From Catajapyx aquilonaris (Eukaryota), in NCBI GenBank assembly GCA_000934665.2, contig JYFJ02000277.1:62001-126000 (forward strand): a DNA stretch of 64,000 nt. Reading direction: 5' to 3'. Made by a program: the position numbers and the translations under genes. Each line of letters begins with the position of its first letter. The first letter of the stretch is position 1. Of the stretch, positions 30,001-64,000 are shown piece by piece. The notes under the pieces are model-generated. The model saw only the letters and a list, made by a program, of their open reading frames with translations. It was not told where the DNA came from and made no database searches.

Positions 30001-33000
30001 CAAATGCTAGATGAAGCATCTCAAGCCAATCCTGCCTTAGTAATTGAGAAAGTGGCAGGCAAAGGTGCAGGAATCATTCGCATGGTGGAAGCACATCGTG
30101 GGAGAGGGGCCACTGGAGGAGAGAAGTTCCTGGGACTTCTGCAGCCAAGAGATGTGCTGGCATGTTCTCCAGAGAAGATGATGCCTGCCTACACTGAGGT
30201 GCAGGGTGTAACAATCAACACACCAACAGAAAAAGTGGATCCATCTCCATGTCAAGTGAAGGCAATGATGGAGATTGTGTTCTGGTCCGATTCCAACAGT
30301 GCCAGGACCAAGGCTTTTCGGGACCTTCAGACAAAGCTGCGCATGGAAGCAGCTTCCATTGCAACCAGGAGGGAACATGAAAAGAAAGAAAGGCTCATCC
30401 TCTGTGCCTCGTTGAAGGCACTTGAGGATGCCATGAATAAGGAAGGATTTGCATTGAGAGCAGCGAGCATGCCTGCTTTTACTGGGGCTCTCATCCGCCT
30501 CTTAGTTACCTTATGCGTAAGTAGTAATATGCCCAAGCATTGATCCTAAGAAAAGAGTTGGTTTTGCAAACATTTGCTTCAAAATCGTTAAATTCATACA
30601 CTGTTTAATATTATAATGAGTGTCTTTTTGCTTGTGTCACTTAATATCTGGAGTGGTTTGTGTTCTGTATCCTTATAGGGCAAAGTTGCATATTCATTTG
30701 CTTGTGACTTGACTTTTTTTTCCCCCCCTTTAAGAAAAGTGAGAAGGAATGATTTTTATTATCACTTTCACAGAATGATCCAACATTGGAGAACTCGGGG
30801 GAGAGGACCCACTTACAAGAGTTAGGAAGGAGATTGCTACTTCTTCCGGAGATGAACTTATGTCCCTCTAAGTCCAGCCTGCTTAAATTTTGTGGTCTAC
30901 CAAAGAAAAAGTCATCAGCTCCTCTCAAGATTGAAACATCATCAAATATGATTGAAGGTGATTTCCCTTACAAATATGTACTTTTCCTCCTCTTGAAACA
31001 CAATTATTGGATAGTAGTAGCATGTTTCAGATCATTCATACTGTAGGAAACAATAAGTTGCGTACATGTGCCAAAAAAAAAATGCAGAACGAGAAAACTA
31101 ATTAAGCAGTGGCCCACTTAACAGTTAAGGAATGCACGATGGGCATAATGTATGGTTACAATGGGCGCATAACTGACATGCATGACTTATCGCCTCTCTG
31201 CAAAGAGATACGCTGTGCCACGTATTGAAATTATCATCTTACACAGATTTTTCTGAATTTCCATTGGTGTAATCCCATTTGAAACACTCTTAAATTAGGT
31301 TGAGGCGATTAAAGTCATTTTCTTTAAATTGTTTAGACTCGATGTAATGACTGGTGGTGGACCACTTTTACCACATTACTAACGCCTCATTACACTTTTA
31401 CTCATTTGGCCTCCCTCTCTATTCACTGCCTGCTTGTTCCTGATCCTATTGATAACCCTGCAGTGACTTCATATGTTTGTGAACACAATGTAACACACAT
31501 GCATCAGATATATAAAGTTGCACAATTCACACTACGGGCCGTTTTCTCGAACAGTGCAGTGGTTCAAATGTAAACCCGGTTCAAAGCCGTTTTAAACCCT
31601 TGACAACAGCCTAACAACAATCAAATCAGGGATTAAACTGGCTTTGAACCCGGTTTACATTTGAACCCCTGTTCGAGAAAACGGCCCTACATGTGCAAAT
31701 TAACAATGAACAATTAATTGTACGTTTTACATTAGCTCTCCGGAACAGTCCACCCGACAAGCTGGAGAAGGTCATAAGGAAACTGGTCAAGGAGATGGTA
31801 ACAAGCAGCCAGAGGCGCCAGCTAGTGGAAGTCTTATGGGCTCAAGTGGAGGACATCAACTCTCACTTATCCCCAGAGATGTTTCTCGATTGGCTTCTGA
31901 TCCTGGACCCAGAGATGAACAATGGCAACTCAGCCCTCTATATGAATGTGCTGTTCTCCAGAAGAGACATTTCCATCAGGCCTGCTCTTATTAGCCATCT
32001 CTTATATGGGACTCAGTGGAAGACCCTCAACTCATACATTATCCGGTTGTTGCAGGAATATGATGCGCAGTAAGTGTATCATTGACTTAAAAACGCATTT
32101 GCAGGGGTATCTTATGTGGAATATCAATATTCAAAGCAGATGGCCTAAATAATGCGGCAAATTATCAACTAATTTCACATCAGAACTGCATCAGTATGTT
32201 AATCGCCTCTCCTACAATTGCCATTCCTGCTGTATCAAAGATAAAATGGGACGTATGTGTTTCTGATTGAAATCTTGCTTTCTGGCAGATATAATCCAAC
32301 TCCTCTTCTGGACATCCTGAGCACACTGACCACCAGCCACTCTTACCTGTGGCAAGGGAGGGATCTTCGTTACAACCCCAGAAGCCAAGCACAAGAGGAT
32401 GATACCCTAAGGTTGGATGCAACCCAGCTCATCTCACTCACTGAGTACATAGTAGAGGAGACCTCCCAAGCTCTCGCTGGTGCAAATGATGATACCCCCT
32501 TGCGGATGTTGGAAGCTCGCACCAACTTAGTGATCCAGAGTTGTAGGCACAGGATGGAGCTTCTAGAGGGAGGCATTCTCTCCAAGCTACAGGCCTTGGT
32601 GCATGGTGGATCAGAAGCTGCTATGTACCTCATGACGCGCCTGTACCTCCATGTGCCACGCATCAACAACCTGATAGCCTCTGTTGACGCAGCGGTTTTA
32701 GGGACCTGCGATGTTTCAACCTCTTGCACCTTTGATGCTATGCTGCGAACCCTCATAAGCTATCTTGGCTGCCCCAGACAGGGAATGAAGTGGGTGACAG
32801 ATTCAACTGATGCGGAAATGTTAGTGAGGAAGGCTGCAGCACATCACCCTGTACTGTTCCTGAGGTTCCTGCCATTGCTCGCTCGATTCCTTCATGGAAG
32901 GTCCTGGCTGAACTATTGGCATTTTAGGTAAGTGTCCACATGGAGAAAATATTTAGTTGGAGCAAGTGCCAGGCAGTGGGTATTTTCAGTTGCCTCACAG

Positions 33001-34486
33001 TCAGTTTAGTGTATACCAGGGAGCATAAATATTTTTTAAATTTAAAATCAAAGCGATTAAGGCAAGTTTGGGCTGCATATCCTAAATTAGTGTCCTTGGA
33101 ATTTCCTCTTTGAATCAAATGTAAACCTTGGACCGCCTTGGACAATGTGCGTTTGTGATCCTGGTGAGGATTGTTTCATGCTAAGCAGCAACAGTAATCG
33201 GCCATCATCACGTATCGGCTTCCTTGACATCCCACAATCTGCCATGCCCAGAATATCAGATGACTTACACCAGATACCCAGAAGTTCCAGCATTTGTTGA
33301 ATAAAGTAGTAAGTTACTGTATTAGCAGGCCAATTTTGTTAACCAAATCTCTCTTGCTGCAGGTCCCAAAACAACCAGGTCCTGTTCTCTCGCACCATTG
33401 GAATTCTTGAACTCCTGCAGCCGCAGTTGTTTTGGGCCCAACATGCAGGTGCTTTGGAAGATATTTTGTCCACCTACATGAAAGTGTACCGACAACATAC
33501 CTGCATGACAGATCTTGGACCCATACTTGGCCGAGTTGTGGCTTTGATGAGAAAATACATTCAATATTCTCCAAGTAGGGGGCTTGCTTTTGCACAGAAG
33601 CATGCCTGTCTGTTGAGTGAGCTGTCAAAAGTGTATTTTCACATGGGCAGCCTTCACGTGCTGACTTCGGCTGCAGAAAGGTCGAATCAGAACCCCGAAA
33701 TACTTGCAACCAGCACTACTTTGGCATTGTTATACAATGATACGACAGAGTGTGTGCGTGAAAATCTTTGGCCGCTTTACCAGCAGTTGGCCCAAAAGAA
33801 AGATCCTATTGACATATTAATGATTCTTCAGGAGCTTGAAAGGCACTCATCAGTAGATTTTAATAGTGCACTGGGCCCTGCTGCCAACAGCCTAAAGGAA
33901 CTTATAAGTCACAGTGCTGAGGAGGTGAGAAGTTTGGCCTTCATTCTACTGGTGCGATACATGAAGAGCTGCCCAAGGGAGGCTGCACAATTTATGGGTG
34001 AATACATGGGTTGCCTGGACTCCAATAATATGGGCGTGGTTGTAACAGCCATGCAACACCTGTCTCCGTTTGTCATCTTAGTTCAAGGTACAAAGACTCA
34101 GATATTATGCCATTCTCATTTTTTAAATGTTCCAGTGTGTCCCCTTAGTGCTTGAATCACCTGAATACACCTTTAAAATAATTTAAAAAACCATAGTATA
34201 CAGTACCTATGCTCAATTTTGTCAATTATTTACACCTCTTGTTTCATACTACTACAGTACCTTTTTATAGCCTGGGCATGTACTAGTGATCATAAAACCT
34301 TTTTTTTAAAATTCTTGCCTTTCAGAGCATGCTGAAGTGCTTCTGAAGAAGGTATTTGAGTTGGCAATTGCAGGAAAATTCGACTCCAGGCTTGCCGTCA
34401 AGGCCATTGCTGAATCTCTTAACCGCCTGAGCATACAAAATTACTTTGGTGACGCAGAGAAGGACACCACATCAACAGTCACCTAG
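18028..34486 (+). CDS. INTS1: Integrator complex subunit 1, multi-exon, apparently complete
   Basis: N-terminal PPGDLIALG (cf. PPGDFIALG). Further matches: WPLQFVEEYAKDAAGARNWVDQEDCKPFVDNICTSFKT; VRLFSMQNMEVWLQ; LYWKSWIMLLILAAHNPTPIGWEAWNHYPMLRTFIEM; NPQGPPRIPP; LPVMCLCEY; LDWLLILDPEM; AAHHPVLFLRFLPLL; LELLQPQLF. The exons checked join in phase from ATG 18028 (first donor probably 18266) to TAG 34484-34486. Two introns need GC donors. Confidence 0.93.
23850..24570 (+). mobile_element. Degenerate mariner transposon in an INTS1 intron
   Basis: TIR-like start TACGAGGACATGCTGATAA. Fragments TVNSE, ILHHNNARPHT (cf. HDNARPH) and LPHPVYSPDLAPCDFCLFPKIK (the mariner YSPDLAPxD motif) lie in different frames. 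Confidence 0.85.
24630..24875 (+). mobile_element. SINE with a V/Meta-type central domain
   Basis: B box GAGTTCGATCTCC; body CGTGGGTTTTCTTGGGGCTCTCCTGTTTCCTCCCAC; tail CCCCTAAAAGG..CCTATCATGGGGTA then (ATT/ATC)n. 5' boundary uncertain. Confidence 0.7.
25645..25930 (-). mobile_element. tRNA-headed SINE with 13-bp TSD
   Basis: TSD TAGAAAATTACTT at 25632-25644 and 25931-25943. Minus-strand head GGTTGTCTAGTGG..GGTTCAAATCCC; tail CCCTATCACAGGGTAA. Confidence 0.88.
31536..31687. mobile_element. Fold-back MITE, PIF/Harbinger-like
   Basis: TIR GGGCCGTTTTCTCGAACAG / CTGTTCGAGAAAACGGCCC, long internal inverted arms, 3-bp TSD TAC on both sides. Confidence 0.85.
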
Positions 34487-35720: not shown

Positions 35721-37031
35721 TCGACTGCCATCCTGTATATGTGTGAGACGCACAAAACACATGTATACATGTTCCTGTTGAAGCTACATCAGCGAGCTCA
35801 TTCCTAATGGTTGTTTTCAAATTGCTGTCAAAACAGTACTGTAAACATGAGTTTGACATTTTCCTGTAGGTTGTAAAACATAAAACTTCTTGCCCGTCAG
35901 GATGCATTGTACATGTCAATAAAGTGCTCTTGGTATTACATAAGTGCAACAAATTTGTGAGAAAATCAAAGAAAAATATGATAAATATGCACACACAGTG
36001 TCAAGTACAGTACCTAGTATTACGCCCTTGTATGGATTGTTGTTTATCTTTATAAACTGACTGCTGGCCTAAAGTACAGTACTGAGTGGGTAACTGGTAA
36101 GGGCACCACCGTGTGAATTCCGTGTGACCTTACTATTTCCATTTCATTACCCTACTTTTCCCTACAACTTGCATGTTGAAATGCTACTGTAAAGCCCAAC
36201 ACATTCATAATAATATGCAGTCATATCAACAACATCTCTACACAGAGTTCCCACGCGGTCGGGAAAATCTTGAAAATGTAAATTTCGTATTTAACTTAGG
36301 GGTAAACCATACAGTAATGAGCCACTTATAGTAATCTCATTCATATTAATGTGTAAACTGTCCCAAAGGCGGCCCCATGTGAAAAGTGACCCATACATAA
36401 CTGTACTTTTGTGACTTTTTTGGAACTTTTCATTACCAAAAGTGACGGTACAGGAGAGTTTCAAAATTACAGTTGCTCCTTGAAAGAGTACATTCTGAAG
36501 ATTCAGAAAAAAAAATGTCATTAAACTGCAGATGTAATTACTGTGGGTCATGTGACGATGTGAACTTATAAAATTTCTTAAAATAATGGTCCATAACTGT
36601 ATAGTTTACCCCTACTTATTTCCGCCCTTGAAAAAGTCGGGATTTAATGATAAGTAACAAAATGTCGGGAAAGTGCACAAATATTCGGAAAAACCAAGAA
36701 AGGATGGAAAGTACGTATAGGTATCTACAGAGTTCCTGGATTTTTCCTGTCTATATACCCAAAAGCCCCGATCACCACCCGAAATTCCTCGCAAAGTACG
36801 ACGATTTCAGCAAATTCTTCTAGCATGGTTCTCAATGTTGTTATTCCGCATATTTTCACGCATTTTATAAATCCGCCTAACTCCTGCCGGCAGTACTCGG
36901 ATTCCCAGTTTTTATAGCCCTTTTATTTTTGGAAATTAATTTTTGGGACTTCTATAGACGAGTAAAATTGTTCCAGCCACATTCATCGTGTTTTCCCAGA
37001 TCGGGTAAGTATATAGCTGTTATTTGTAATA

Positions 37032-37227
37032 CTGGGTGGACCAACTTCAAGTGTCGTTTTATAACGGCTATTAATAGAAGCGCTTTAGATTGACGTAGCA
37101 GCGACGTGTAAAAAGGCCTACTTCGATGGCGCCGAAGTGGGACATTTTACACGTCGCTGCTACGTCATCGCAAAATCACTGCTATTAATCGCCGTTATAA
37201 AACGACACTTGAAGTTGGTCCACCCTG
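37032..37227. mobile_element. Fold-back MITE, Tc1/mariner-like (TA target sites)
   Basis: TA|CTGGGTGGACCAACTTCAAGTGTCGTTTTATAACGGC ... GCCGTTATAAAACGACACTTGAAGTTGGTCCACCCTG|TA, with inner arms TGACGTAGCAGCGACGTGTAAAA. Confidence 0.88.
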
Positions 37228-38277
37228 TATATCTTCGTCCGTATCTTTGGAGAGTACGCGTAAGCCGAAATCTGTGTGGTTCGGGCCTATATCTGGTATA
37301 GCGAAGTGGTTAACAGATCAAAATTAACATCCTTCAGACTACTTTATTCGTTGTTACTTTTTCTTCTCCCACATAATATTGATCCTTATCTCGGGCGATC
37401 TCTCTTCATGATTATGTTGCCACCAAACAAAACAAAAAAAAAGGCGGACGCCAAGATTGCCCCCAACAAATAAAAAAGCATAATTATTATAACCCAGACC
37501 TAGTTTACAACCAGTTGCATTCCCACGTCCATCCACAATTGAACAGATAATTTGCTTAAGATTTCGACTTGATCAGCAAAGGTGGCACAAAGTGGTGTTA
37601 TCAATATATTATTTTAAGGCGACGACTTCAATTCCGCACGACTTTATTAAGTTAATTAACTTGTAATATTTTTTTTTTTGTCGAAAAGTTTAGGCAACGA
37701 TATGTTCCTGCTGTAATGTAACGAGCTTAGGTTTTTCCTTGCCTTAAAAAAATCGTCAACATGAGCGCGTGCCAAAGAGTAGGTAAGAAGAAGAATTGCA
37801 AGAGAGCGCAATTGCGCAATGATGGGGGCGGCGCAATGCATGCAAGCAAAAGCAAAAGCAAGCAATCCAAGAAGTAGAAATCCTGAGAGACAAAAACGGG
37901 CGTTTCCCGTGAGAATCCTTTATATATTTACCGAGTTTCGGCTCTTGTCTTGCATATATACACACACATTCTGCTGGAAGCCTCGACACATATATTTAGG
38001 GATCAAATGTCTCCCTATATATAGGCGCGTACATACTTCTCTGCAAATATTTTAAGTGTATTTATTAATCTCTGAATCACTTTTTTTGGAGGGGGATAAG
38101 TACTGAGGGAATAATAACTACCCGCAATTATGTTCGCGCTTGTGTCTAGTAGGATTTCGACCGTTCAAACGGGCACATCGTACAAGACTGTGTAAGTACA
38201 TTTTTTTTCTCTCTCTCTCTCTGATATATAGCATAACGACGATAATAATAATAATAATTCATATTTCCTTCTTTCAG

Positions 38278-41200
38278 GAAGGACACTAGTTCCATCAAGA
38301 GGATCAAAGCTGAGCTGGAGAGTGAGGCCAAGCTCGAGATCGTCTGGAAAAATGTGGTTATGCTGACCATCCTTCATGCTGCAGCCATTTACGGAGGGTA
38401 CATCTGGATCACTGGAGGAAACGTCCTTTGGTTCTTCTTCTGGGGTGAGCAATCGTAGTTTAAATTATTATGAGATAATCATCATCAATTCGTATTAACA
38501 ATATGCTGGCCTCCACCATCGCAAACCGCAGGCCTAGAAAAAAAACCGAGCGAGAGAAGTCATAGTTTAATTATCATGAGATAATCATTAGTAAAGAGCT
38601 TATAAGAGTGGCCAGTAATTCTCACATGAAGGGCGAAATCAATCAATCAATAAGTGAGTAACTGATGAGTAAATAAATAAATTGCATCGGTATAGCATCG
38701 CGCTGCGGTGATTTTAATTTTGATGATTTTCCCATGAGAATTGTGTGGGAGAGACAGACGCACTCGAGACGCGACTATACTAAGATTACAGTTGCATGTA
38801 CAGTTACAGTAATGAGCATATTTGACTGACAGTTTATCCTGGTGGTTTTCTGTGCAACTTTCCCGTTTTCAATGACGCAGAGGAAACAAGAGGTATGAAA
38901 ATTCACAAGAAAGTTGCTGAAAAATCCCAGCGCAATTTCTTGCGTGAAAAATAATATACTATATACGTTAATCCCCGTGAGATTCATCAAGCTTTGGCTT
39001 TAAAATAATCTCCATTATTACCATCCCCATGTTCATGAGGATAATTGAAGAAATGGCAACAAGAGTGTGGGGTTAACCCTGCAAATGTTCTCACGTGTAT
39101 TATTCTGTGTGTTATATTATAGGTTACGTGCATTCAACACTGAGCGGAATTGGTGTGACTGGTGGTGCTCACAGACTGTGGGCCCATCGTGCATACAAGG
39201 CCAGCTACAAGCTTCAGGTTCTGCTCGTCTTCCTTCAGGCTGCAGCTGCTCAGGTACAGAAAATATCCAGTACTCTGTACAATTGCACTGGAAAAAGCAA
39301 TCGCCTTCATGACTGCCAGCTGCATGTACGTAGATGGCAATTTAAAATCGCACGTCAAGTACATTTATTTAACATGAAAATGTCAATTATAGTGGTGAGC
39401 ATGTCTGCCAACCTCAAAGTTACATGAGTCATTGTAACTCTCGAGTAAAAATAACTCATTATTGCGCTAAGAGGACATTTTCACATATTACTGCAACTTT
39501 AAAATCCTGTCCTTTTTTTTTGGAGGGGGGGGGGGGGGTCCTGGAATAATATCACGCGACGGAAGCCGGAAGCTGTCCTTCGTGCACAAGACTTTGATGT
39601 GAGAAGGAGTAATTTAGCATATATATTTATTTCTCAACCGGATTTGCGCATTATTTGGAAATGAGCATTGGGACAGTCATGTCATGAAGCCATCAGAGAA
39701 TGTGAAATAATTTTTTAAAAAAAATCCCTGCACAAATTTAAAAAAGGAAACTGGGATAAGGTGCGAATATTTTGCCCTATATATATAATATTGAAACTAA
39801 AATTGCAATGAAAGGATTCAAAAGCTCAGACTATATAAGAAAACTACTTTCTGCTGTTGGATCTTCAGCACATATGTTCGTGTCGCAATTTTAAACAATC
39901 AATTTAATGGTTGAGAGACCACCCGAAACACTGGTAGAGATGATCACTGTCATTTTCTGCACTTTATGAATTCACGGTTGCTACGAGTAAAAAAAGGAGG
40001 CGTTTGTCGAAAATGATTGTCCTGTCAGATAACAACAAGCGAAAGTGATTACCGTGGTAGTTGAACGTTTGCATCACTCGACACCCTGCAAAAACCATGT
40101 TTAAACTACTGTATCTGCAGCCGTGAATAAAATATTGTGCAATCATAATAATCACTGAGCTGACATATTTCCATCATCTCACTCCATTTCCTTTACCTGG
40201 GTATACCAGTTGTTCCCTGTTGTTTACCACCCACACAATTACGCCACCAAGGAAAAAACAAAGCCTCACATTCCTTTGTATTTATATTCACACTATCCTT
40301 TTATTCCCTGCACAGTAGTTCATGCAATGCCGTAAGACCTTACCAGCAGCTATTATTGATAATGCCAACCCTGCAAGCTGCGCGAACTGTGGTGCGCACT
40401 CGGTTGCGCTAGTATAAAAATTCATCTATAGATGCATATTATGAAACTGCCCAATTTTAACTATTCATCCGTACTTGACTTTCTTTGTCCAGAATTCCAT
40501 ATACGTGTGGGTGAGGGACCACCGTCTGCACCACAAGTTCACAGAGACCAATGCTGACCCTCACAATGTGAAGAGAGGCCTCTTCTTCGCCCACATCGGA
40601 TGGGTGTTGTGCAGGAAGCATCCGGCGGTCAAGGACAAGGGCAGGACAGTGGACATGAGTGACCTGCTCAACGACCCTCTCATCATGTTCCAGCACAAGT
40701 ACTCATCATGCATGATTCTGAATATATTATCTTCTGCATAATTGCAATGCCCTCAATGGTACAACAATGGTCATAACAATGGTTGCACTATAAGGTTGAT
40801 GCAAATAATGTGGGAGAATTACACTTCTACTAGCCTAAAAATATTTCTCTTATTTTTCCAGAGGCTTTAACTCATGCGTATGCGACCTTCCTGTCGCATG
40901 CATGAAAGCAAGTAGCTAAAAAAAACACACACACGAAACTCACAGTGCGTGACTAAACCATGTGAATAAAAAAAATTTAATGAAAAAAGCAACACTTGTC
41001 CCCCAAAAAATTCTGGCATATGTCATCATGTCTGTGGCGTGTTTACTACCAGCACTGTACGTCATAATGTACGGTATTAGCAAAGTTATGTATACATGAC
41101 GCAGAGGAAATGTGCTGAAATACGATGATTCAATTATAGAAAGTACCAAAATATATTCAGACAGGACATATTGCAATTCAACCCAATTTTCATGCACACA

Positions 41201-41944
41201 TGTCGTGTTAAACGTCTTATTTCGACATATTCTAATTTTGACATGATCGTAATGTTTTTTTCTTGCTGAGCAAATAGTATAAGTCCTTGTGATATTCAGA
41301 TTAGTATGATTGACAATGTATATTTTCTCTCATCAGATATTACACTCCAATGGCACTGTTTCTGTGCTTCGGCATACCCACGCTGTTTTACCGATATGTT
41401 TTGGGCACCACTTGGGCTTACGGCTTCTTCGCCCCTGGAATGTTCAGATACGCCCTGTCCCTCCACTTCACCTGGTTGGTCAACAGTGTAGCACACTCTG
41501 TAGGTCAAAGGCCATACGACAAGTGAGTACACCACAGAGAACCTCCATACAATCATTAGAGGTCATTTTCACAACAATTGTAGGACGTACGTACATCAGT
41601 ATGTTGTAAACATGAGATGATTTGTTGGACTTAGGTCAATCTACGCTTCAGAGAACAAGCTGGTGTCCGTCCTGGCCTATGGAGAGGGCTGGCACAACTA
41701 CCACCACGTGTTCCCTTGGGACTACAAGACCTCGGAGCTGGGCTTCTACAGGTTCAACTTCACCACTGCCTTCATCGACTTCTTCGCATGGCTCGGATGG
41801 GCCTACGACCTGAAGACGGCCACTCCGGAGATGGTCAAGAGGAGGGTGGAGAAGGCTGGAGACGGAAGCCACGAGGGGGTCTGGGGATGGGACGACAAGG
41901 ACATGCTCCAAGACGACATCAAGAACGCACTCATCATCAGCTAA
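38278..41944 (+). CDS. Acyl-CoA desaturase (Delta-9/'first desaturase' family); N-terminal exon(s) not resolved
   Basis: Exons 38278-38444, 39123-39253, 40493-40698, 41337-41522 and 41635-41944 join in phase. His boxes HRLWAH, DHRLHH and GEGWHNYHHVFPWDY, plus EIVWKN, DPHN, FFAHIGW and TWLVNSVAH. Confidence 0.95.
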
Positions 41945-42450
41945 TTAATATCTATTAGAGACAGGCATAAACTCGGATTTTCATCAGATCCAAAAAATTC
42001 ATATTTATTAATAACAGTATGATTACAAACTTGCTTAACGATTAAATCAATGGTAATGACATTTTTGTACTAACTGTATGAGGGGAAAAAACTTTGTGGT
42101 TTACGAAAATTACTTCGATTCAAACCAGCGAAGCGGACTTAATTATGTATTGAACTCCTTTACATCATATTGGAACTTCTCGCCGTAATTTTTTATTCGC
42201 AAAACGGATGCCAAGGGCCACTTGTGTCCTTAATTAATTTGATGAGCAGTAACGGTAGTTCAAAAGTAAATCTTGCTCCTAGGGCACACAGTATTTATCA
42301 CAACAAAAAATTAGCCCCATGAAATTTTGCAAGTTGAATTATTTCTCATATTTATTTGTGGGAAATTTTTATTGCATCGTCAAAGGTGACGATATACAAT
42401 CTGAGAGTACGCAGGATTATATATTATTGTCTACGTGGAAGAGGGGACCT

Positions 42451-44557
42451 TTAGCAAATGTTGAGTGCGGGCAGAACCTTCCCCTCGCATGTCCCGAAGC
42501 CAACCCTGAACCCGTCTCCCTGGCAATATCCTGAAAGATCACACCGCAGTCAGTGCTAACATTGCAGTAAATATAACTGCGATCTGTAGAACCGTACCTG
42601 AAAGTACGACTTCATCTCCATCATGAAGGAACCTTCTCACACCCCCATCCTCCAAACCCACCTCCTTTGTACCCATCCAGGAAAGCTCCACCATCGAGCC
42701 AAAAGTGTCAGGCGTCTCCATGAAATAAAAATCACTTATTGGTAATCAATGCGTATCCCAAAATATGAAAACAAAAAAACCCTCTCACCGGTCCACTGAT
42801 GGTTCCAACTCCCAGAAGATCACCAGGATTCATGTTGCACCCTGTGATTGCATGGTGGGCCAACTGCTGCTTCATGGTCCAGTACATGTGGCGGAAATTG
42901 GTGCGACACACAGTGCTCGACACGCCAGAGTTTTCAGCTGGTAATAATCAAATATGACATGTTGCCCCCATAGTGTTTACTATAGAAATTGTCTAGAATA
43001 ATTACGCTTAATAGCGGCCTCCAATCTGATGTCAAAGTTGTACGGATCTTCATGCTTGAGGTACATGAATGGCTCCGGATCCTGTGGGAAGTTTGGCACC
43101 ACAAATGGCTCCAGGGCATCCATGGTGACAACCCATGGAGATATGGTGCTGGCGTGGTTCTTGGAAGAGAACGAGCCTAGAGGTGCGCACTCCCAGAGCT
43201 GGAGGTCACGAGCTGCGGAGGTCATAGGAGGATTCAATTGGCCGGAAAGCAAGGAACAAACTTACCGCTCCAATCATTCAAGAGGACCATTCCGAAGATA
43301 TGGTCGGCTGCTTTCTCTATCTGGATGGGCTCTCCCAGTTTGGATGCGGGCCCAACAAAGAAGCCCATCTCCAACTCAAAGTCAAACATTTGGGACGGGC
43401 CGAAGACAGGAGATGAGTTGGTGTCCGTCCTGGACTGCCCGTTAGGCCTCCGGACAGGAGTACCGGACACCACGATGGAAGAAGCACGCCCGTGGTAACC
43501 AACAGGGATGTATTTCCTATAATAATTGTACACAAAATCACATACAGAAAGGAAACAATTTGCTAAATAGATTAATTGGTGGTTATATATTTCCAAACAT
43601 GAACGACACAAGCAACTCCCGTGTGAACCCAGCTTACCAGTTGGGCATGAGAGCCTTGTCTTTCCCGCTGAACATGGTGCCAGTGTTGGTGGCATGATAC
43701 AACGAAGAGAGGAAGTCAGTGTATCCGCCTATCTCAGCCGGAAGGTGCATAGTCGCATCAGACTGCTTCACAAGAGCACTGCGGGATATCGCAATTAGCA
43801 GCATGATTCCAATCAATGCAATCAGATCTTAATTTACGTTTTTCTTAGCTGCTCGTTATCCCTGAGAGCGCCTTCGTTGGCTGAGAGAATCCTTTGGAGA
43901 GTTGATCGAGCCTCGCTCCATGCAGCCTTGCCCAACGCCATAAACCCATTTAAACTCGTCTTAAATCACAAAATGCCTCGTTAGAATAAATATTTAAACT
44001 AACGTAACAGTGAGTCAACATTTACCTGGTTAAACACATGCAGGAATTTTGAAAGGATTGGTCCAGAGAGTAAGGGCTTGATAGCGCTCAGATCTAATAT
44101 GTAATCGCCTATTGCCACTCCGATGCGACGGTTCAGCTGGAAATCACAAAATTAATGCTACAGAGGATTTCATGCAATTAAAGAATAATTCATGCAACGA
44201 CAATATCGAACTGCATTTATCAGCTTAGATGCCAGACTGATTGGCTGCTAACTTAATGAATCAGTTGCCCTTGAACCTCAGACAAAGTTGGATGAAGGCC
44301 AAACGGAGTCACTGGACCTTCAAGCAAACCAGATTATGTCTCACGGAAAAGTATCCTGCTGAGCTACACAACACGCCTTCTAAAGTCTCAAGCTCGGTCT
44401 AAAGTCTAAGCCGATATAAGAGGGGAAAAATAATTCACACATAATTGACACACAGTACAGATTGCTCGTAACTTACGTTGCTTTCGGTGGAAAATACTCC
44501 AAATGGCAAATTCTCTATGGGAAAGTCGCAATAAACGGGATAGTGTATAAAGCTCAT
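42451..44557 (-). CDS. FAH: Fumarylacetoacetase paralog with an altered substrate pocket
   Basis: Complete multi-exon gene from [24 protein letters not shown] (44557-44477) through [83 protein letters not shown] and [12 protein letters not shown] to [24 protein letters not shown] (42451-42453). Confidence 0.95.
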
Positions 44558-45459
44558 TGTTTCCTTCTTGCACTGTCAGAACCAGTATGCATCGGAAACC
44601 CAACCCTGAAGGCCTTCTGGTCAAACTGCTTTCGACCCAATGTACGTCTTTGTTTATATTCACACTGAGTGTTATCTGGGAATTCTTGATGGGCAGGCGC
44701 TAACTATCGGACAAATTCATATGTCAACAACAGCAAGTGGTGCTAACAACTCATTCTGGAACAATCACGTGTCATGCAGTATCTTGCTTATCAACCAACT
44801 AGTAAATTCCATACACACTAATATATTATTGGAAATTATCTCAACAACAAATATGACCTTGTGGAGTAGTTTTGTGCAATCGCTTCAGTTTATCTCAATC
44901 ACAATATAATCACATACAAAATTATAATGACAATTAATTTTCTTGGGCATCCTGGTGATAATCTCATAACGACTTTATAATGCACTAGCACGATTTACAT
45001 TTTTTAGACAACATAAAATCATATCAAACACTCCCTTTGTTGATTTGAATTCACAACAAATATTATTTTGTACATCAATGAACATACAGTACATCTTAAA
45101 ACTTTTCATGTACAACAAACATAAATTACTTTTCAGTTTGTACACATGAGATGTTTCGATAACATTTTAGGCCCAGATTCATGATGATGTAAGGCAACTG
45201 ATTAGTATGTGTTCCCTTTTAGCTATTTTAGTCATCACCACAACATTCAGTGGCTGGATCTAATCAACTTGTACTTCAAACAGTAGCTATTGCAAGCAAT
45301 AAAAGAAAAGAAAAAAATGACACAAGAATAGAACCAATCAATTTGAAATTACACCTGAAAACTTCCCTTTTAGCAGCTCATTTCACACTATATTAAATGA
45401 AATTAAACGTCACTGTCCAGCTCTTGTGTATTATCCATTCCCAATCCCACATCATCTAA

Positions 45460-45640
45460 AGGCCCATTCACACAGGCCGTCGACGGTTTTGGTTTTAGTT
45501 CTCGCCGACGCCGCGGACCAATCAGAGCGGGCCCTCACGTAAACAACGCGTCATGGTTACCGTGAGGGCCCGCTCTGATCGGTCCGCGGCGTCGACGAGA
45601 ACTAAAACCAAAACTGTCGACGGCCTGTGTGAATGCGCCT
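45460..45640. mobile_element. Fold-back MITE, PIF/Harbinger-like
   Basis: AGGCCCATTCACACAGGCCGTCGAC... / ...GTCGACGGCCTGTGTGAATGCGCCT, ~80-bp arms, flanked by TAA and TTA. Confidence 0.85.
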
Positions 45641-47111
45641 TTATAATTGCTTTCTGCAATAATAGAGATACAAACACAGGCCATCATCATCGCCATTAAT
45701 TAGTAGGAGATCCTTGAAAACTAATATTGTTTCTAAAACATACTAGGAAAATGCAAATAACATAGCCATTAATTTTAGAGACTAATCATTTATCTCTGTC
45801 GCCATAAGGAAACTGACATTCGGAGAAGAAAAAAAATCTTTTGAATTCTTGGATCGCTAATAATCGCCAGAACTGGCGAGATACAAAGTTTCCAAAAAAA
45901 TTATACATGGCATGGTTAATCTTAAGGACATTTGCATACAAATTTTTACGCAAAAAAACACTACATACGCTGAACGGATATACTCATTTACAAAGCACCT
46001 ATTACAAGACGCATTTCTAGTGCCAGAAACTTAATAGCACCTTGTAAATAATAATTAATAAACCTCAGAGGATCTCAAAACCATAATGATATCTAAAAGC
46101 TGTTTTATGATACACATCACAGGCTGTAACTGGAGATTACATATAGTGAAAGGTGAAATAACGGTCCTTCAAATCTATTTATTTCACCTTCCTTTCGTGC
46201 ATTTACATTTCTACATAATTATCAGCGAGTTCTCTTTGATGACTAATAATTGTCTTTCACGGCAAAAATTTCTTACGGATCAAGTTTAGGACGCATCTGG
46301 GTATTATACGTAGGTCACATGTATATACTTTTAACAACAATACTTAAGACTTGTGACGTCTACATCAGGTACCATCAAGTTTGCCATAAATGGGATTAAT
46401 AAAATTATTCCTTGAAAGTCCAAATCTACCGCATGCTTTTTCATCAACAGAGTTGTGAACGTTGTGCATGACCAGTTTGGTTCAAGAGTTACACAGAATG
46501 TTAACTAGTATCGTGAAGACTAACTAGCACTACTATAAATCTTGTTATGGCAATTGAACAATGAATTATTATTACGAGTCTTCCAGTGGGAACACCGCCT
46601 CATAAATATGTCTTTTGACGAAAGCAACCACCTTTTTTTCATGGTTTAGCTGTGGAAGCCAGGCGATAAGAGAGTGAAAATACGTCCATGTGAGCAACAT
46701 GATTGGAAGTATAGAAAAGAAAAAAAAAATCATTCTCACGAGGTCAGGAAAGTACTCCCACTGATAAGACTCGTTCCACTTTTAAATACTTAGAATAATA
46801 AATCTCTTAACAAATTCCAACAAACTGCACATTTGTAATTTTGTTAATTTCATGGTGCGATGTGTGTAACAAACTATTCGAGACGAGTTCAGGATGGGTG
46901 ATCGATATTTAATCCAAAATGATTTGCTCCGATTATTGTAGTCAACAATCATTAGGAGCAGCCGCTTGTTTTGAACTTATTTACTTGGATTGCGTCCAAC
47001 CCATCTTTACTGAATACCCATCGGCAATATTGGATATGTAACAAATTTACCTACATGTCCACTCGAACATTGGAGATACGGCTACATTGCAATCAGGCGA
47101 TACTTCAAAAA

Positions 47112-49420
47112 TCACTTCTCCTCCTCCGCATCCGCTCCTAACAGAGAGAAAACAATGGCCATGGCTCGCGACCCATCCCTAATCTGAACCACGGCTGTGG
47201 GTCCGTCTAAAGCCAGCGTAATGCTTGCCACTTCAGTGCAAAACGGCACCTTCTGTCTGATCCCGGTGTCAAACACCTTCAACAATTGGCCGGAGGAGGA
47301 GTCAAACAGGCGCAGATCCACAATGTGGAGTCCCCCAGATCCGCTTGACAGATTTTCCCGGACTGACACAATGCCCATGAGGTCGAGATCATCCTCGTAA
47401 TCGTACGTAAGGTCGTACGTTGTGTCGTCAAGCGAGGACATGAGGCACATGGACTTGGACTTGGAGCGGCGTTCGTGTCGTGGGCGGCGGGAAGAGGTGG
47501 TGGCACGGGAGGGGGCAGGGCTGTGGTTGCGGGGATCACTCTCTGCCGCACTGAAGTTGAACTGGAGGTCCAGGGAAGATAACCGACCCGAAGGCACTAT
47601 GTTGTATATTCTAAGGCAACAACGGAAAGAGGGATGAATATGAATGTACGACCAAAACAACAAAATTGTTTGCATTGTATCACACCATGTGCTGTTTCTA
47701 GAGGTACAGTTTGGATAAGTTGGAGGGTACTCGGATGTTGTGAAACACTCACCTAAGCTGGCTGCTGTTCATGTGCACCACTCGCGAAGAGTCGTCCGGA
47801 TGGAAGAGAACTAGATCTGTGTGGGAATCGGACTCGGGGTACACCAAGTGTCCATTTTTCAACACTCTCTGGGTCGCCAGGTCACACACCTGGTCACGAG
47901 AAGGAACACACGCATTTTACACCTGAGAATCACGTTGTTGTCAGCAAGTCACAGGTCAATTTGCTGTAAAATGACACTTCCAGTGCCTTTACAGAGTGCT
48001 TATAATTTATTTATTTTTGTCAAGTGTGGCAATATACCTCATACACCCCTTTTCCGAGGTGAACGACATAGTTCCAGGAGGGTCTTCCCCCGACCTGCAT
48101 GTGGTGGTTGACACTTCGGAGGTTGAAGAGGGTCCGAGGGGGAGTTGTGTGCAGCCTCACGTTTACGGGTAGGCCGTACGGTGAACGACCAACCACTTCT
48201 GGTGAGTGAGATGACGAGTGGGAGTACGATCTGCCTTCACTACCTGACAGGCACTGACCCAACTTGAAATCCTCTTCTTTGTACTGCACCAAGAAAATGC
48301 ACGGTTGTAATGTCGACACCAACGGTACGCTTGCTAGGCACTCACCATATCAAGTATGTACTCCATGTCATAGGCGTGCATCCCTCCATTGTTGTGCAGA
48401 ACCAAGAGGCAGCCCTGGTAATACGAGGCGTCGATGGCGCTCTTCCCAAAGACGGACTTCTTGATCTGGAAGCAACCCCTGAACACAAGGTGCGGATAGG
48501 AGAAGGCGGCCATGACCAGGACTAGATCCGCGTTGTAGGCTCCCCTGGTAGACTTTGCCACCATCAAATGGTTCTCCTCGTCTACAGTCAGTTCTACGAA
48601 CTTGTAGGTTGGAGACAGGAACACACTCTCCAGCTGCTTACCGGTCGTCAGGTCAAAACGACGCAAGACATTGTCCACAGTCAGCATGAACAGGGATGAA
48701 CGGCAGCCTAGAATAAATAAAATTGCAAACTCAAAATGTGAATTTAGCAAATACTCTAACAGAATGCTTCACTTAAAATGTGAATTTTGCAGTACTCGAA
48801 TGGCATACAAAAGCGAGCTCAATTTATTTGCATCGCATGCATGTGATTGTGATTCGCTGTACCTTTGTGCATTATTGGCGGATGATGGACTACTCCTTCC
48901 CATATTTCCTGGTCCCTGAGATGAAGGCAAGGGATGCTGTAGAGTGGAACCATCTTCCCTTTGCTTCCGTGGATAGCGAGGCAGTCAACTAAAGACGTAA
49001 TTTTAAAATTCAGCAAAACGCTAAGTACAAACGAAAGCGCACTGTTAAAAATGTATATACACAATTCTTCGCTACTTTCACTCGTATTATCACAAGTTGA
49101 ATATAGTTTCACATCCAATTTTTTCCACACGCCGCAACGAACTCACGTGACTTCCTGGTCGCATTCCGCACGAAGATCCTCCCAGCGTGGGAGATGAACG
49201 GGCCCTTCGAGGACCTCAACTTGACCAGCGTCCGCGCTCCCGAGCGGTACGACCAGCAGATGAGCGTCCGCAGCATCATCTGGTCTCTCCTCCTTCCATC
49301 CGCCCTCTTTCCAGGCGTCCCCATCTCCCGACCAACCATCCATCGCACCGCCGAGTACTTCTTCCTGAACATCAGACAGAACCTGCTGCGGGAAGAAGAT
49401 TGACTGATTAATGGCGCCAT
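47112..49420 (-). CDS. DCAF17: DDB1- and CUL4-associated factor 17, multi-exon
   Basis: Matches to recalled human DCAF17: MLRTLIC (ILRALVC), AGRIF (RGRIY), SSLFMLTVDNVLRRFDLTTGKQLESVFLSP (SSLIALTAHNWLLRISATTGKILEKIYLAP), QIKKSVFG (EINKKIFG), VGRSPYGLPVNV (VGEAPFGIPCNI), QVGGRPSWNYVV (QIGGHPWHYIV), FHPDDSSRVVH (FHPDASGRIIH), DYEDDLDLM (DYEDELDLL). Confidence 0.9.
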
Positions 49421-49442
49421 ACTACGCCAATACTACGCATGC

Positions 49443-49536: not shown

Positions 49537-50493
49537 ACAGAGCAGTGCGCACGACGCAAGGCTTCGTACTGATGAGTACGCTTTGTTCATACCAGCCTTT
49601 TCAATTGAAGCGTACTCACCTGACAGTCTCCAGTCAATCTGATTATGCCTGATTTTTCCAGCTGGTTCTTTTTCCAGGAATTCCAGACACGAAAGAGAAC
49701 TTGCCAACTTCTGTTGTAAACAAAAACGTTCGATTACGTCATCGAAAACAGCTGTTTCCTTCGCATAACTTGTTTGTTTTTTTTTACAACAGGCCCGTGT
49801 ACCACGTAGCTGCTAACAATGAATGATTGTTGCTCTAGCCCAATTGTTGCCGGTCGTGCCAGGGAGAGATGGACAGTCGAATGTCGTCGACATTGTCGCA
49901 AAAAAGATGGCTGCAATTGCAATAATTATAAACGCTGGTTGCGAGTGTCTAAAACTGCAATGTTGATCAAAATAGCTGTTATGTAGCTAAAATCGCTGCT
50001 TGTTTTTTAAATAACTAACATGCATTTATATGCATAATTTTATAATTCCGATTGTACTTAAAACTATAATTACATAATTATGTGCCCAATAATGTAACAA
50101 GTGCGCGTAATAAGCTGTATGTATATCCAGATTGTTTTAGAATAGGTTGCAGTGCTGCCACTCGAAGGCACCCCAAGCGCCTTGCAGAGGACACTCTGGT
50201 CATTGTCAATGTTTTTTTTTTTGGCGAATCTGGACGAAAGTGGGCCATAGAAACAGCGGTAATTAATTTGGCTACATACAGGCTACAACCAGGCACAGGT
50301 GGATGCATGGCACACTTGCCAAAAAAAGCTACAGAGTAACAGAAAAAAGGATAAGACACACCCAAACTGCTTGAGAGGTATCATTCTCCCAATGGGGTAA
50401 AATGAATTTTAAAAAAATTATAATTGTCTATCTAATATGTCATGGTTTAATATTAAAGCTTTATAATGTGCAAAATCCTAGCATGTTGCATGC

Positions 50494-50513
50494 AACAACA
50501 ACAACAGCAGCAG

Positions 50514-50544
<31 letters not shown>

Positions 50545-50589
50545 AATAACAATAATAATAATAAATTCCCCAGCCCTAACTTGTAGTCG

Positions 50590-50645
<56 letters not shown>

Positions 50646-50790
50646 TTTCCCAGCCCTACGTACACTTGTAGTCGATAATAGTAATAATAATAATAATAAT
50701 ACATTTCCCAGCCCTACGTACACTTGTAGTCGATAATAGTAATAATAATAATAATACATTTCCCAGCCCTACGTACACTTGTAAGCGATA

Positions 50791-50841
<51 letters not shown>

Positions 50842-50872
50842 TTCCCAGCCCTACGTACACTTGTAAGCGATA

Positions 50873-50910
<38 letters not shown>

Positions 50911-50947
50911 TTTCCCAGCCCTACGTACACTTGTAGAGTTGTAGTCG

Positions 50948-51002
<55 letters not shown>

Positions 51003-51040
51003 ATTTCCCAGCCCTATGTACGCTTGTAGTCGATTAATAA
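50494..51040. repeat. Compound satellite: ~31-bp unit alternating with (AAT)n tracts, 7 copies
   Basis: TTTCCCAGCCCTACGTACACTTGTAGTCGAT near 50566 (degenerate), 50645, 50704, 50759, 50841, 50911 and 51004, preceded by (AAC)n. Confidence 0.95.
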
Positions 51041-51117
51041 TGCGGTTTTATTAATTTTTTGATATGTCCGTTCTGTTTGTTACTTTGCATAAATTTCTTT
51101 ACAACCATTGCAGGAGC

Positions 51118-52887
51118 ATGTCGAAAGTGAAGGTGAAGTGTGAGGCGGGTGAAGATGAGAGTGTCACTATCGAAGAAGACTGGAAGCTTAACATAATGAA
51201 GGAATCCCCATCGTTGCTGATGGTCAAGCAAGAAGCGGAGATGAATTCGACAGAGCCGGTAGACGACGAGGAAATGGTGCTGCTGCCTAACTTGTCTGGA
51301 GAAACCCCTGGCGCATCGGCAGATGAGGTCAGCAGGCCAGTCGATCCTGTTGAGAATCAGGTTAGTATCATTTTCTCGCTTGTTTTTTTTTTGTTTTTTT
51401 GCAATTGCGTTGGCACAAGCAAGAGGTAGGAACAGGCTAACAAAACGCCTCTCACAGTAATAGGGAAGATAACTTCAATGAAGCGTCACAGTGCTTACAA
51501 CCTTGTATGATGATATTTCATACTGTATAATGACTTACTTTCCAGCTCCTCTCTTAGGTCGTATATAAAAATAAATATGTACATTACAATAAGGGTGTGT
51601 GTGCGTAGTGCCATGCTGGATGAATCTAACAGATGTCATCAGATCAATTTCGAAACAGGTGTAACATTTTGGTTGTGAAAGGTATATGCAAGTCTAAATT
51701 CAGCAGATACACAGAAACAAGGGATTATCTGCAGGCTCAGCTCCATATGCGTGAGGTCCATCATTCACCTTCCTCGCTGGTCACCGTCACGACACCCTCC
51801 CAACCAAGCAAGAGGTTCCGATCTGGCAACTGGGGAGAAGAGGAGAGGGAGGCCCTCCTCAGCTTAATCAAGGAGTGCATCAACCTAGTGGAAAACAAAG
51901 GATATGATGGAACTGCGATGAAGAGAAAGGCAAAAGCATGGCAAACTATTCATGAAAAGTTTTGCGCCCAGAACGGCACTTCCCGCACCCTTCCAATGCT
52001 CAAGCAACAATGGAAGAGAATGAAAATGTCCGCAAAAACATCAGTTGCATCGTTCCGAGGGAGCCAGAAGAACGCAGATGGGGGGAAGGCCGCAAAGGAG
52101 CCCTCCGCAATGGACTGGGCCATCTCACAGCTTCTGCCCCATGATTTTGAAAAGGATGGGCCGGAGTTAGATAACGATGTGGATGGCGAAGTGGACCATA
52201 CTCCAACCACCCCTGTTGAATCTGACAACAATGCCGATGTGTCAAGGTAAAATTACGAGTGCAATGGTTTGTATGGCCTGCGATAACTAAGTTTATTATA
52301 CTTGTTACAGTGCAAGGTGTTCTGTAGTGCTGGACAATCTTGACTCCAGCACTTCTGAAGGCCTTGAAAGCAACCAGACAGATCCACCAAGTCCAGAGTC
52401 ACCCAGCAATCACCTTGGAGAGTCAGCTGAATGTCTCTCTAGGCATAGTTTTAGTGAGCACAGTTGCGAGTGAGTTTGTCATTACTTATGTTCCCTTAGG
52501 CAATACGGATGGTATTTTGTGACTACCTGATGTTTAATTGCAATTCGCAGGCGAGCAAATTCAACTAAAGTGCAAACGGACAAGCCTTCAAGAAGCGGGA
52601 AAAAGAAGTGGCCAGCATCTTTTCCCCGATATGACCAAGAAGCTCTGGAACTATTGAAGATGAAGATGAACCTGGAGATGGAGGCCTTGAAAAAGGAGCA
52701 TTCCATACGGGTAGCTGTCGAAGAGGCCAGATTCGCCACGGAAAAAGCACGACGAGCTGCCGAGGAAGAAAAGTTTGAAGCGGAGAAGCAGCGGAGAGCT
52801 TATTACGCCATGAAAATTCGACTGTTGGAGCAAGAAGTGCGAGGAAAGAATAATGACTATCGAAGGGTTCAGGGAAATTCTTTTTAA
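51118..52887 (+). CDS. Myb/SANT-like DNA-binding domain protein (Harbinger-associated type) with a C-terminal coiled coil
   Basis: Exons 51118-51360, 51735-52246, 52311-~52420 and 52551-52887 join in phase. Domain RSGNWGEEEREALLSLIKE..VENKGYD..KRKAKAWQTIHEKF..RTLPMLKQQWKRMK. Confidence 0.88.
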
Positions 52888-62384: not shown

Positions 62385-64000
62385 ATGAGTTTCATATCGT
62401 ACCCCAGCGATTCACACTTCCCCATCGAAAATCTGCCTTACGGAATATTTTCCACCAGGAATGACGTGAGTGACCCACTTTTTTTTCTGTACTGCATAAT
62501 GTACCGCTACAGATCAACACTTGAATGAACAGGAAGAAGGATTTACAGCCTGTGAATATATCAGAAAGAGATAACCTTTGGGCGCCTCTTATCAAAGGCC
62601 ATTAGTCAGATAAAATATGGGGAAGCAAAAATGTGATTACTTTTCGTTAACAATATTGACATGCATTCACAACCAATAGTTTTAAAACTGAAGCTATTTT
62701 ACTGTACAGCTACAGTGTAATATTGCTTCCTTAATTAATTATCCGAATTCAGAGAGGTTGCTTAACGTAAACGCGCCCGATTAAATCCTTTAGTCAGCCT
62801 CGATTAGCAAATTTAATCAACCATGCTAATACAAAGACGGCGATTAGCGCTAAACGCCCCCTAATCGCACTTGCTAGCACTTTTAAATTTGCTAATCGAG
62901 GATGACTAAAGGATTTAATCGGGCGCGTTTACGTTAAACAACCTCTCTGAATTCGGCCCTAATTAATTAATTAACAAGTGAAAAATATTGGTAGAATATT
63001 TGCAACCAAAATGAGCCACTTTTTTTCCTTACTGATCTAAAAGTACTGTAAGCACCAATAATATTAATATGAGAGCCTAATACTAATAGTCATTATCATA
63101 ATCATAATTATTTCAGCCTAAACATCGCATAGGAGTAGCCATAGGCGATTACATATTGGATCTGAAAGAAGCCAAGTCCTACTTCACCGGCCCAGTTCTC
63201 TCAAAGTATCAACATGTTTTTGAACAGGTACAAGCATGAGTTATGCCTTAATCAACTGTTGGACTAATCAAAATTAATCCGACATAGTCAACTTTGAACG
63301 ACTTTATGTCATTGGGAAGAGCAGCATGGAAAGAGGCCCGATCTACCCTCCAAAAGATCCTGTCCGCCAACGAGAGCGTCTTGAGAGATAATGAGCAAAT
63401 GAGAAGCAGGTGAATTCACATATAAGTTTTTTTTAAATCAAATAATTTAAAAAAAAAATTATTTGAAACTACAGGGTGTTTGTGAAGCAGTCGGACGCTA
63501 CCATGCACCTTCCTGCAAATATTGGCGACTACACCGATTTCTACTCGTCTTTGGATCATGCCACCAACGTTGGAACCATGTTTCGAGGGAAGGACAATGC
63601 TCTCATGCCTAACTGGTACGCTTCAATTTGATGGATATTACGGTATTTTTTATCGTACGACATGACCAACTGATATCTAAATTTAGCTGTTCCTAAACTT
63701 CAGTAAGTAGGTCAAACGGTAACGGTTTTAGAGAGAACTGTTACTGATAGCTTCGATAAAATGCAGTCTACTGATTTACAACGTTTTGTCGGTATTGTAA
63801 GACCACAATGTGATTGAACCCAACACATTCCTCTTTAGGAAGTACCTCCCTGTGGGTTACCACGGTCGTTCGTCATCCGTCGTTGTGTCCGAGACTCCAG
63901 TCCGTCGTCCCAATGGACAGACCAGACCCTTCGAAGACGGACCTCCTTCTTTCGGACCATGCCGTCTCTTCGACTTTGAGTTGGAGATGGCCTTCTTCAT
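62385..64000 (+). CDS. FAH: Fumarylacetoacetase, canonical copy, 3' end outside the window
   Basis: [24 protein letters not shown] (62385-62465), [92 protein letters not shown]. Intron positions match the minus-strand copy. Confidence 0.96.
62743..62959. mobile_element. Fold-back MITE, PIF/Harbinger-like, in FAH intron 1
   Basis: CCGAATTCAGAGAGGTTG..CGTAAACGCGCCCGATTAAATCCTTTAGTCA is approximately the reverse complement of TGACTAAAGGATTTAATCGGGCGCGTTTACG..CAACCTCTCTGAATTCGGCCC|TAA. Left tip eroded. Confidence 0.85.

Follow-up and report, generated by a model that had tools for sequence, protein, structure and literature searches.

A fumarylacetoacetase paralog of Catajapyx aquilonaris keeps its catalytic residues and has lost three substrate-binding residues: a candidate new C-C hydrolase

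A 64,000-nucleotide stretch of contig JYFJ02000277.1 of Catajapyx aquilonaris, hereafter the window, carries two genes of the fumarylacetoacetase (FAH) family: FAH-A, the canonical paralog, and FAH-B, in which the catalytic residues are in place and several substrate-binding residues are replaced. Is FAH-B a decaying copy, an altered enzyme of tyrosine catabolism, a protein with a non-hydrolytic role, or a hydrolase turned to another substrate? The last possibility had been proposed by a sequence-only reading of this DNA, which saw in FAH-B a neofunctionalised enzyme cleaving a beta-diketone or dioxo acid whose tail is uncharged or hydrophobic. The canonical enzyme completes tyrosine breakdown by splitting fumarylacetoacetate into fumarate and acetoacetate. 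We found no report of FAH paralogs or duplications in the open-access literature, most subscription papers lying outside this coverage.

FAH-B occupies positions 44557-42451 of the minus strand. Its nine exons (Table 1) join to 1260 nt, i.e. 419 codons, with zero internal stops and one terminal stop. All eight donors are GT and all eight acceptors AG, as the sequence-only reading had announced for the frame and the splice sites, and the two minus-strand motifs and the plus-strand motif that it quoted are all present; the acceptor of exon 8 is GAG, a rarer type. The TATA-like box and the initiator-like element upstream of FAH-B are a consensus match only, and such a pair at this spacing occurs 3 times in the 64-kb window. 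The WGATAR sites are likewise consensus matches only: five stand upstream of FAH-B versus one upstream of FAH-A, the window mean is 0.9 per 450 nt, and five or more are reached in 10 of 1271 overlapping sliding windows. If functional, the TATA-like box and the GATA-type cluster would predict activity in gut or fat body.

FAH-A extends beyond the window to about window-equivalent position 65808, in the adjoining genome stretch, and encodes 418 amino acids with every canonical residue present. The two genes are arranged head to head with their starts 17.8 kb apart, and their exon lengths and phases are the same for all nine exons. In searches of the own genome they were the only FAH-proper genes; two shorter genes of the FAH superfamily (PF01557) lie elsewhere, at C135 and C1259. 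The two copies are identical at 304 of about 419 residues (73%) and at 910 of 1260 nucleotides (72%). This nucleotide identity, the location on the same contig and the DNA matches covering the coding stretches rule out an assembly or allele artefact as the source of FAH-B.

Table 1. Features of the two FAH genes and of the region upstream of FAH-B (positions in the window; residue numbers of mouse FAH)
Feature	Position	Strand	Remarks
FAH-B exon 1	44477..44557	-	81 nt; ATG at 44557
FAH-B exon 2	44026..44136	-	111 nt
FAH-B exon 3	43838..43959	-	122 nt
FAH-B exon 4	43638..43778	-	141 nt; D126, H133 retained; D123G, Y128L, V137T, R142S, N146K
FAH-B exon 4 codons	Y128L 43711-43709; V137T 43684-43682; R142S 43669-43667	-	
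FAH-B exon 5	43266..43516	-	251 nt; Y159, E199, E201, D233 retained
FAH-B exon 5 changes T180S, P182T, P187S, C193S, L195M		-	in or near dimer-interface stretch
FAH-B exon 6	43006..43212	-	207 nt; R237, Q240, K253, P246, L247 retained; K241L, Y244C, V245A, P249S
FAH-B exon 6 codons	K241L 43198-43196; Y244C 43189-43187; P249S 43174-43172	-	
FAH-B exon 7	42789..42937	-	149 nt; G349, T350 retained; S348V (42809-42807)
FAH-B exon 8	42598..42715	-	118 nt, GAG acceptor; E364 retained; L363V (42691-42689), K368M (42676-42674)
FAH-B exon 9	42451..42530	-	80 nt; TAA at 42453-42451
AATAAA poly(A)-signal-like hexamer	42368..42373	-	about 80 nt past the FAH-B stop
TATA-like box TATAAA	44653..44658	-	31 nt upstream of the A of the initiator-like GCAGTT at 44627
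Cluster of five WGATAR (GATA-type) sites	44672..44961	.	within 450 nt upstream of the FAH-B ATG
FAH-A (canonical paralog)	62385..64000	+	exons 1-4 and most of exon 5 inside the window

The remainder of the window contains an Integrator subunit 1 gene (18718-34155, plus strand; Pfam INTS1 R3/R4 matches in its last part), a DCAF17 gene (47112-49432, minus strand), a compound microsatellite of AAT and AAC units in which a spacer of about 30 nt recurs (50488-51059) and a Myb/SANT-like gene (51630-52250). Between the FAH copies, two tandem C2H2 zinc-finger genes (57280-61774, plus strand) have in common a 153-nt segment that is 96% identical (57567 and 59893); judged by this identity, the segment pair is a recent local duplication or conversion. 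Short palindromic MITE-like elements with arms of 58-88 nt are found at 45457-45643, about 900 nt upstream of FAH-B, at 62743-62956 in FAH-A intron 1 and at 37029-37230, upstream of a gene that we take to be acyl-CoA desaturase-like (38279-41944, plus strand). The latter carries the His boxes HRLWAH, DHRLHH and HNYHH, its exons gave no match in Pfam scans, and it is oriented tail to tail with FAH-B, its end being about 500 nt away from the stop of the latter. A link between FAH-B and this gene was considered and set aside, the adjacency being tail to tail only.

We then compared the residues of FAH-B with those of its homologs, in the numbering of mouse FAH (1qqj); the human PDB chain 9sqs shows Y128, V137, R142, Y244 and P249, and S348 is taken from mouse chains. 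FAH-B retains D126, H133, E199, E201, D233, R237, Q240, K253, T350 and E364. All nine metal, dyad and oxyanion residues, the roles of which, with that of T350, are described in PMC3631164, are thus kept, as had been claimed. Among 333 homologs, 81 columns are near-invariant (at least 99% conserved); FAH-A differs at none of them and FAH-B at six, namely Y128L (Y in 327/328), R142S (327/328), Y244C (332/333), P249S (333/333), S348V (328/330, one of the two exceptions being a misaligned truncated end) and L363V (328/329). The residue that FAH-B itself has at 128, 137, 142, 244, 249, 348 or 363 is absent from all 333 first-tier homologs, which for 128, 142, 244, 249 and 348 speaks against the possibility that the substitutions are common in FAH orthologs. 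In a second set of 92 full-length, mostly animal homologs, all of which retain Y128, V137, R142, Y244 and P249, FAH-B also departs from five positions conserved in 92/92, V137, K241 (K241L), D123 (D123G), N146 (N146K) and F50 (F50L), and from position 368, which is K or R in 92/92 and M in FAH-B (K368M). The list of substitutions drawn up earlier stands for Y128L, R142S, Y244C, V137T, P249S and S348V; G252S has to be withdrawn as ordinary variation, since position 252 is A in 58, G in 33 and S in 1 of the 92 homologs (A in FAH-A). L363V, K241L, D123G, N146K, F50L and K368M are additions to it.

We take Y128 and Y244 of FAH to contact fumarate, and our assignments for the FAH-B pocket draw on papers and on general background. 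In the structure 1QCO, R142 hydrogen-bonds fumarate (PMC5108417). According to this source, the human R142G variant of silent tyrosinemia type I is normally expressed and shows zero fumarylacetoacetate cleavage, even at threefold dose. The same arginine is lost in FAH-B, but R142G is a single pathogenic change in a sole copy, whereas FAH-B is a spare copy in which several changes are fixed together. By analogy with this null variant, the canonical activity on fumarylacetoacetate has very probably been lost in FAH-B. FAH is described as active only as a dimer, with Tyr-128 among the interface or binding-pocket residues and human P249T grouped with mutations pushing the enzyme toward an inactive monomer (PMC6721957). 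The interface stretch is given as 149-190 (PMC3631164), and the loop starting at Y244 is reported to place P246 and L247 in the site of the partner subunit (PMC7916972). In the 244-249 loop of FAH-B, P246 and L247 are retained and Y244C, V245A and P249S are changed. P249S and S348V may be damaging, because both positions are almost totally conserved in microbial variants (see below) and P249T shifts FAH toward the monomer.

Could FAH-B then be a redundant duplicate that is under weakened constraint and turning into a pseudogene? No stop, frameshift or broken splice site was found in it, nor was a dN/dS near 1. By the Nei-Gojobori method the pair gives a dN of 0.18 and a dS of 1.56, with a pairwise dN/dS of 0.12 (bootstrap ranges 0.07-0.17 for dN/dS and 1.2-2.5 for dS, which is near saturation), far from the value that would have pointed to a decaying copy. 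In a 58-row tree, FAH-A and FAH-B are sisters within FAH proper (100/99; stem 0.2), the pair groups with no named lineage, and the end branch of FAH-B is about threefold longer than that of FAH-A (0.40 vs 0.14). Relative-rate tests with six outgroups agree that the FAH-B protein evolves faster (P from 1e-5 to 0.011), and this rate, together with the weaker exon 8 acceptor, would fit decay. However, at a dS above 1 the gene has accumulated zero stops, frameshifts or length changes, its pairwise dN/dS is low, and its GC content at fourfold sites (0.52, vs 0.38 in introns) has not decayed to the intron level; promoter-like consensus elements are also present. These observations support the view that FAH-B is an old, intact gene under purifying selection on average, as judged by pairwise dN/dS.

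Neutral substitution was also simulated, with a simple model in which changes were added to the FAH-A coding sequence until six of the invariant columns were hit. Under these conditions, 8-9% of the runs kept frame, start and splice sites when indels were ignored, which leaves some room for a decaying copy, and in fewer runs with indels. The catalytic residues were spared in 41% of the runs (P=0.41), so catalytic retention alone is not significant. Y128L, S348V, V137T and K241L need at least two nucleotide changes each, and two or more such two-step changes among the six were seen in 0.2% of the runs. The joint condition, i.e. at least two two-step changes with catalytic residues spared and frame, start and splice sites intact, was reached in 0 of 20,000 runs. 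Moreover, five of the six near-invariant changes are no more than five residues away from a catalytic one (background 25/71, P=0.018), and several two-step changes are concentrated at the active site. Recent decay fits FAH-B poorly, and we regard a copy becoming a pseudogene as a very improbable explanation.

Sequence and catalytic residues assign FAH-B to the FAH protein family (TIGR01266; PF09298 plus PF01557). PF09298 matches both copies, and the 419 residues of FAH-B are colinear with mouse FAH. FAH-B exons 4-7 match only TIGR01266 (E from 4e-17 to 8e-40; single exons cannot reach the whole-protein cut-off), and FAH-B is the sister of FAH-A inside FAH proper, which places it outside the short FAHD/FPH subfamilies. 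With fumarylacetoacetase itself (EC 3.7.1.2; mouse 1QQJ, 1QCO, 1HYO and 2HZY, human 9SQS) it has in common the two-domain length and numbering, the nine metal, dyad and oxyanion residues, T350, Y159, P246 and L247; unlike the canonical enzyme, it carries Y128L, V137T, R142S, Y244C, P249S, S348V, L363V, K241L and K368M. The fumarate-binding feature of EC 3.7.1.2, R142 with Y128 and Y244, is replaced by S142, L128 and C244. Neither an exon-6 search nor a profile search (best 120 of 8000, with a ranking that favours canonical proteins) brought up an ortholog of FAH-B; the best matches were 72% for exon 6 and 66% over the full length, and a library of representatives at 50% identity would hide animal variants more than 50% identical to canonical FAH.

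Are the same positions rebuilt elsewhere? A profile search of such 50%-identity representatives, with a profile that included FAH-B exons and one variant, yielded 150 FAH-like proteins; 126 have all nine catalytic residues and 125 of these could be scored. Y244 is missing in 23 of the 125. When the 178 other conserved columns were ranked by enrichment of change in these 23 proteins, 128, 142 and 137 came out on top, followed by 301, 351 and 146. FAH-B is changed at all of the top three covarying columns (P=0.0017) and at five of the top six (P=1e-4). In a FastTree phylogeny of 119 rows, from which rows with fewer than 330 aligned columns were dropped, the 23 tips lacking Y244 required 19 or more changes and the 10 lacking R142 required 9 or more, with many weak nodes and a registration that can slip at 141/142. 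Positions 128, 137, 142 and 244 behave in these alignments like a specificity module that is altered with catalysis preserved, and FAH-B fits this pattern.

The named variants are fungal (Gonapodya, Testicularia and Caulochytrium) and most of the variants are metagenome proteins. Like FAH-B, these fungal and bacterial proteins have the catalytic set intact and the same pocket positions rebuilt; at 128/137/142/244, Gonapodya KXS09514.1 reads S/M/G/S, Testicularia PWY97379.1 C/M/N/M and P0084 Y/A/G/M. The cyclase-linked Y244M proteins of Variovorax (L007) and Aminobacter (L008) have V363 in common with FAH-B, and Aminobacter L008 and P0084 have A245. Unlike FAH-B, the microbial variants are of independent origins and nearly always keep P249 (123 of the 125 catalytically complete representatives) and S/T348. 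All five that were tested score above the TIGR01266 cut-off and, where named, they are called plain fumarylacetoacetase. P0084 proved to be a singleton and opened no way to a bacterial subfamily; among 119 relatives listed none lacks R142 or Y244.

Prokaryote genomes were scanned by motif for proteins with a residue other than tyrosine at 244. At least 108 stretches were returned, and the following counts refer to the 80 that were analysed. All nine catalytic residues are present in 77/80 loci; P249 and S/T348 are each kept in 80/80, and the P249S and S348V of FAH-B consequently have little precedent. Of the 60 loci with R142, 15 have a homogentisate dioxygenase in the retrieved flank, versus 0 of the 18 without R142 (P=0.017; P=0.10-0.19 at stricter counting, the loci being related and not independent). 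Among plasmids, 252 matches were obtained and eight were examined; the dioxygenase was near only two of six loci with a canonical pocket. Loss of Y244 alone is compatible, in bacteria, with tyrosine-catabolism gene clusters. A cyclase-family gene adjoins 16/80 loci, mostly with M244 and with I or V at 363. ABC transporters, the cyclase family, TetR, enoyl-CoA hydratase, CoA ligase and CoA transferase recur as neighbours, and these families gave no substrate clue for the analysed loci. We also noted a recurrent cluster made of a Y244M FAH-like protein, a cyclase-family gene, an NMT1/sulfonate-type ABC transporter and TetR (L019, L024, L034, L037, L042, L054, L072, L077, L082 and L089 among loci L014-L093, plus L007 and L008). 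This cluster is probably an undescribed catabolic operon; a literature search on the linkage of FAH-like proteins with cyclases returned nothing relevant.

The dioxygenase-linked loci bear on the idea that FAH-B is a sub-functionalised FAH still working in tyrosine catabolism, on succinylacetoacetate, succinylacetone or, slowly, fumarylacetoacetate. The 15 bacterial loci lacking Y244 that adjoin homogentisate dioxygenase would suit such a role, as would the hypothesis, put forward as such by the authors of PMC5108417, that R142G retains residual activity on succinylacetoacetate. The genome is also in line with it: HGD and GSTZ each gave a strong match at a single locus, HPD is present once and is joined by an HPD-like gene, and our searches for HGD, GSTZ and HPD showed no duplicated upstream pathway that could feed a parallel route. 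However, R142 is kept in all 15 dioxygenase-linked loci, whereas FAH-B lacks Y128, R142 and Y244 together, as well as K241 and K368, and the reported failure of R142G to turn over fumarylacetoacetate even at threefold dose argues in the same direction. We consider a remaining place in this pathway unlikely. The HPD-like gene, at G000:C595:54987-55565 (L136, L138), stands besides the canonical HPD at C1200 and is presumably HPDL.

A further alternative keeps selection and gives up hydrolysis: FAH-B could be a pseudoenzyme, a ligand binder, a heterodimer partner modulating FAH-A, or an enzyme with another chemistry of the FAH fold, such as a decarboxylase or a tautomerase. P249S and S348V, rare or absent in other variants, would be explained in this way, and the interface-region changes T180S, P182T, P187S, C193S and L195M come on top of these two. 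The FAH fold is reported to host several unrelated chemistries (PMC3196145), and a catalysis-independent nuclear role of human FAH has been described (PMC13626039). Retention of the nine catalytic residues and T350 across a branch of 0.40 substitutions per site argues against such a protein, and the changes of FAH-B sit on covarying positions of microbial variants that are catalytically complete. A non-hydrolytic role or another chemistry thus appears to us a minority possibility, to be ranked above the two preceding alternatives.

We therefore favour, with some confidence, a neofunctionalised C-C hydrolase acting on a 2,4- or 3,5-dioxo acid with an alkyl or aryl, non-carboxylate tail. This claim of the sequence-only reading is supported in part, by the intact, old and constrained gene, the unusual substitutions, the very probable loss of canonical activity and the covarying positions; G252S has no bearing on it. 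FAH-B would have arisen as an inverted local duplicate of FAH, released from tyrosine catabolism by FAH-A, and its acyl-side pocket would have been rebuilt after this release. By extension from FAH, the metal at D126/E199/E201/D233 would chelate the dioxo-acid end, H133/E364 would activate the water and R237/Q240/K253 would stabilise the tetrahedral intermediate, cleavage of the C-C bond yielding a carboxylic acid and acetoacetate or pyruvate. The groups that hold the far carboxylate of fumarate would now be small or apolar (L128, T137, S142 and C244), and K241L and K368M remove two conserved basic residues. Loss of the carboxylate-binding groups and of bulk in the far pocket, together with that of these two basic residues, would favour an alkyl- or aryl-tailed dioxo acid. 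Expression, folding, catalysis and substrate class of FAH-B are deduced, the uncharged or hydrophobic tail from the side-chain changes only.

Known enzymes make this chemistry plausible. FAH acts broadly on 2,4- and 3,5-diketo acids, as the sequence-only reading had pointed out and as is stated in PMC3196145. FAHD1, NagK and a fungal caffeylpyruvate hydrolase use the same catalytic chemistry to cleave 2,4-dioxo acids with alkyl or aryl tails (PMC3196145 and PMC13669639), caffeylpyruvate being cleaved by a fungal FAH-superfamily enzyme of another subfamily (PMC13669639). These three belong to other subfamilies, whereas FAH-B descends from FAH proper; by analogy, FAH-B may work like acylpyruvate hydrolases without being one by sequence.

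More tentatively, FAH-B may be an animal alkyl- or aroyl-dioxo-acid hydrolase with a microbe-like rewiring of the pocket, in a catabolic route undescribed for animals, for example of aroylpyruvates or of triacetate- or polyketide-derived 3,5-dioxo acids. Aroylpyruvates are, we assume, keto forms of kynurenine-like compounds. Two tandem kynureninase genes are present at G000:C27:119664-124370 (L132-L134), one with WCTYK and the other with WCSNK, presumably the motif beside the kynureninase PLP lysine. Judged by these residues, the genome holds a remodelled paralog of kynureninase too, which makes two C-C hydrolases with such a copy. A shared aroyl-acid pathway of FAH-B and the remodelled kynureninase is possible; a role of FAH-B in bypassing kynureninase is weakened by the two kynureninase copies of the genome. 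Downstream of the kynureninase pair, on the minus strand at the far end of L134, lies a voltage-gated cation channel-like exon, which to our eyes resembles CatSper subunits.

FAH looks uniform in animals, and a selected duplicate with a rebuilt far pocket suggests that animal metabolism includes a C-C-cleaving step so far unrecognised. Our comparison marks 128/137/142/244 as a specificity switch of the FAH family, which distant clusters have used about 19 times or more; therefore many of the microbial proteins that bear the annotation fumarylacetoacetase probably have other substrates. With 73% identity, FAH-A and FAH-B form a ready test system for this switch, and the pair also suits the idea, raised for silent tyrosinemia, of an FAH lacking R142 that is active on other substrates. 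If FAH-B does act on alkyl- or aroyl-dioxo acids, its substrate would annotate a large microbial set now labelled plain fumarylacetoacetase.
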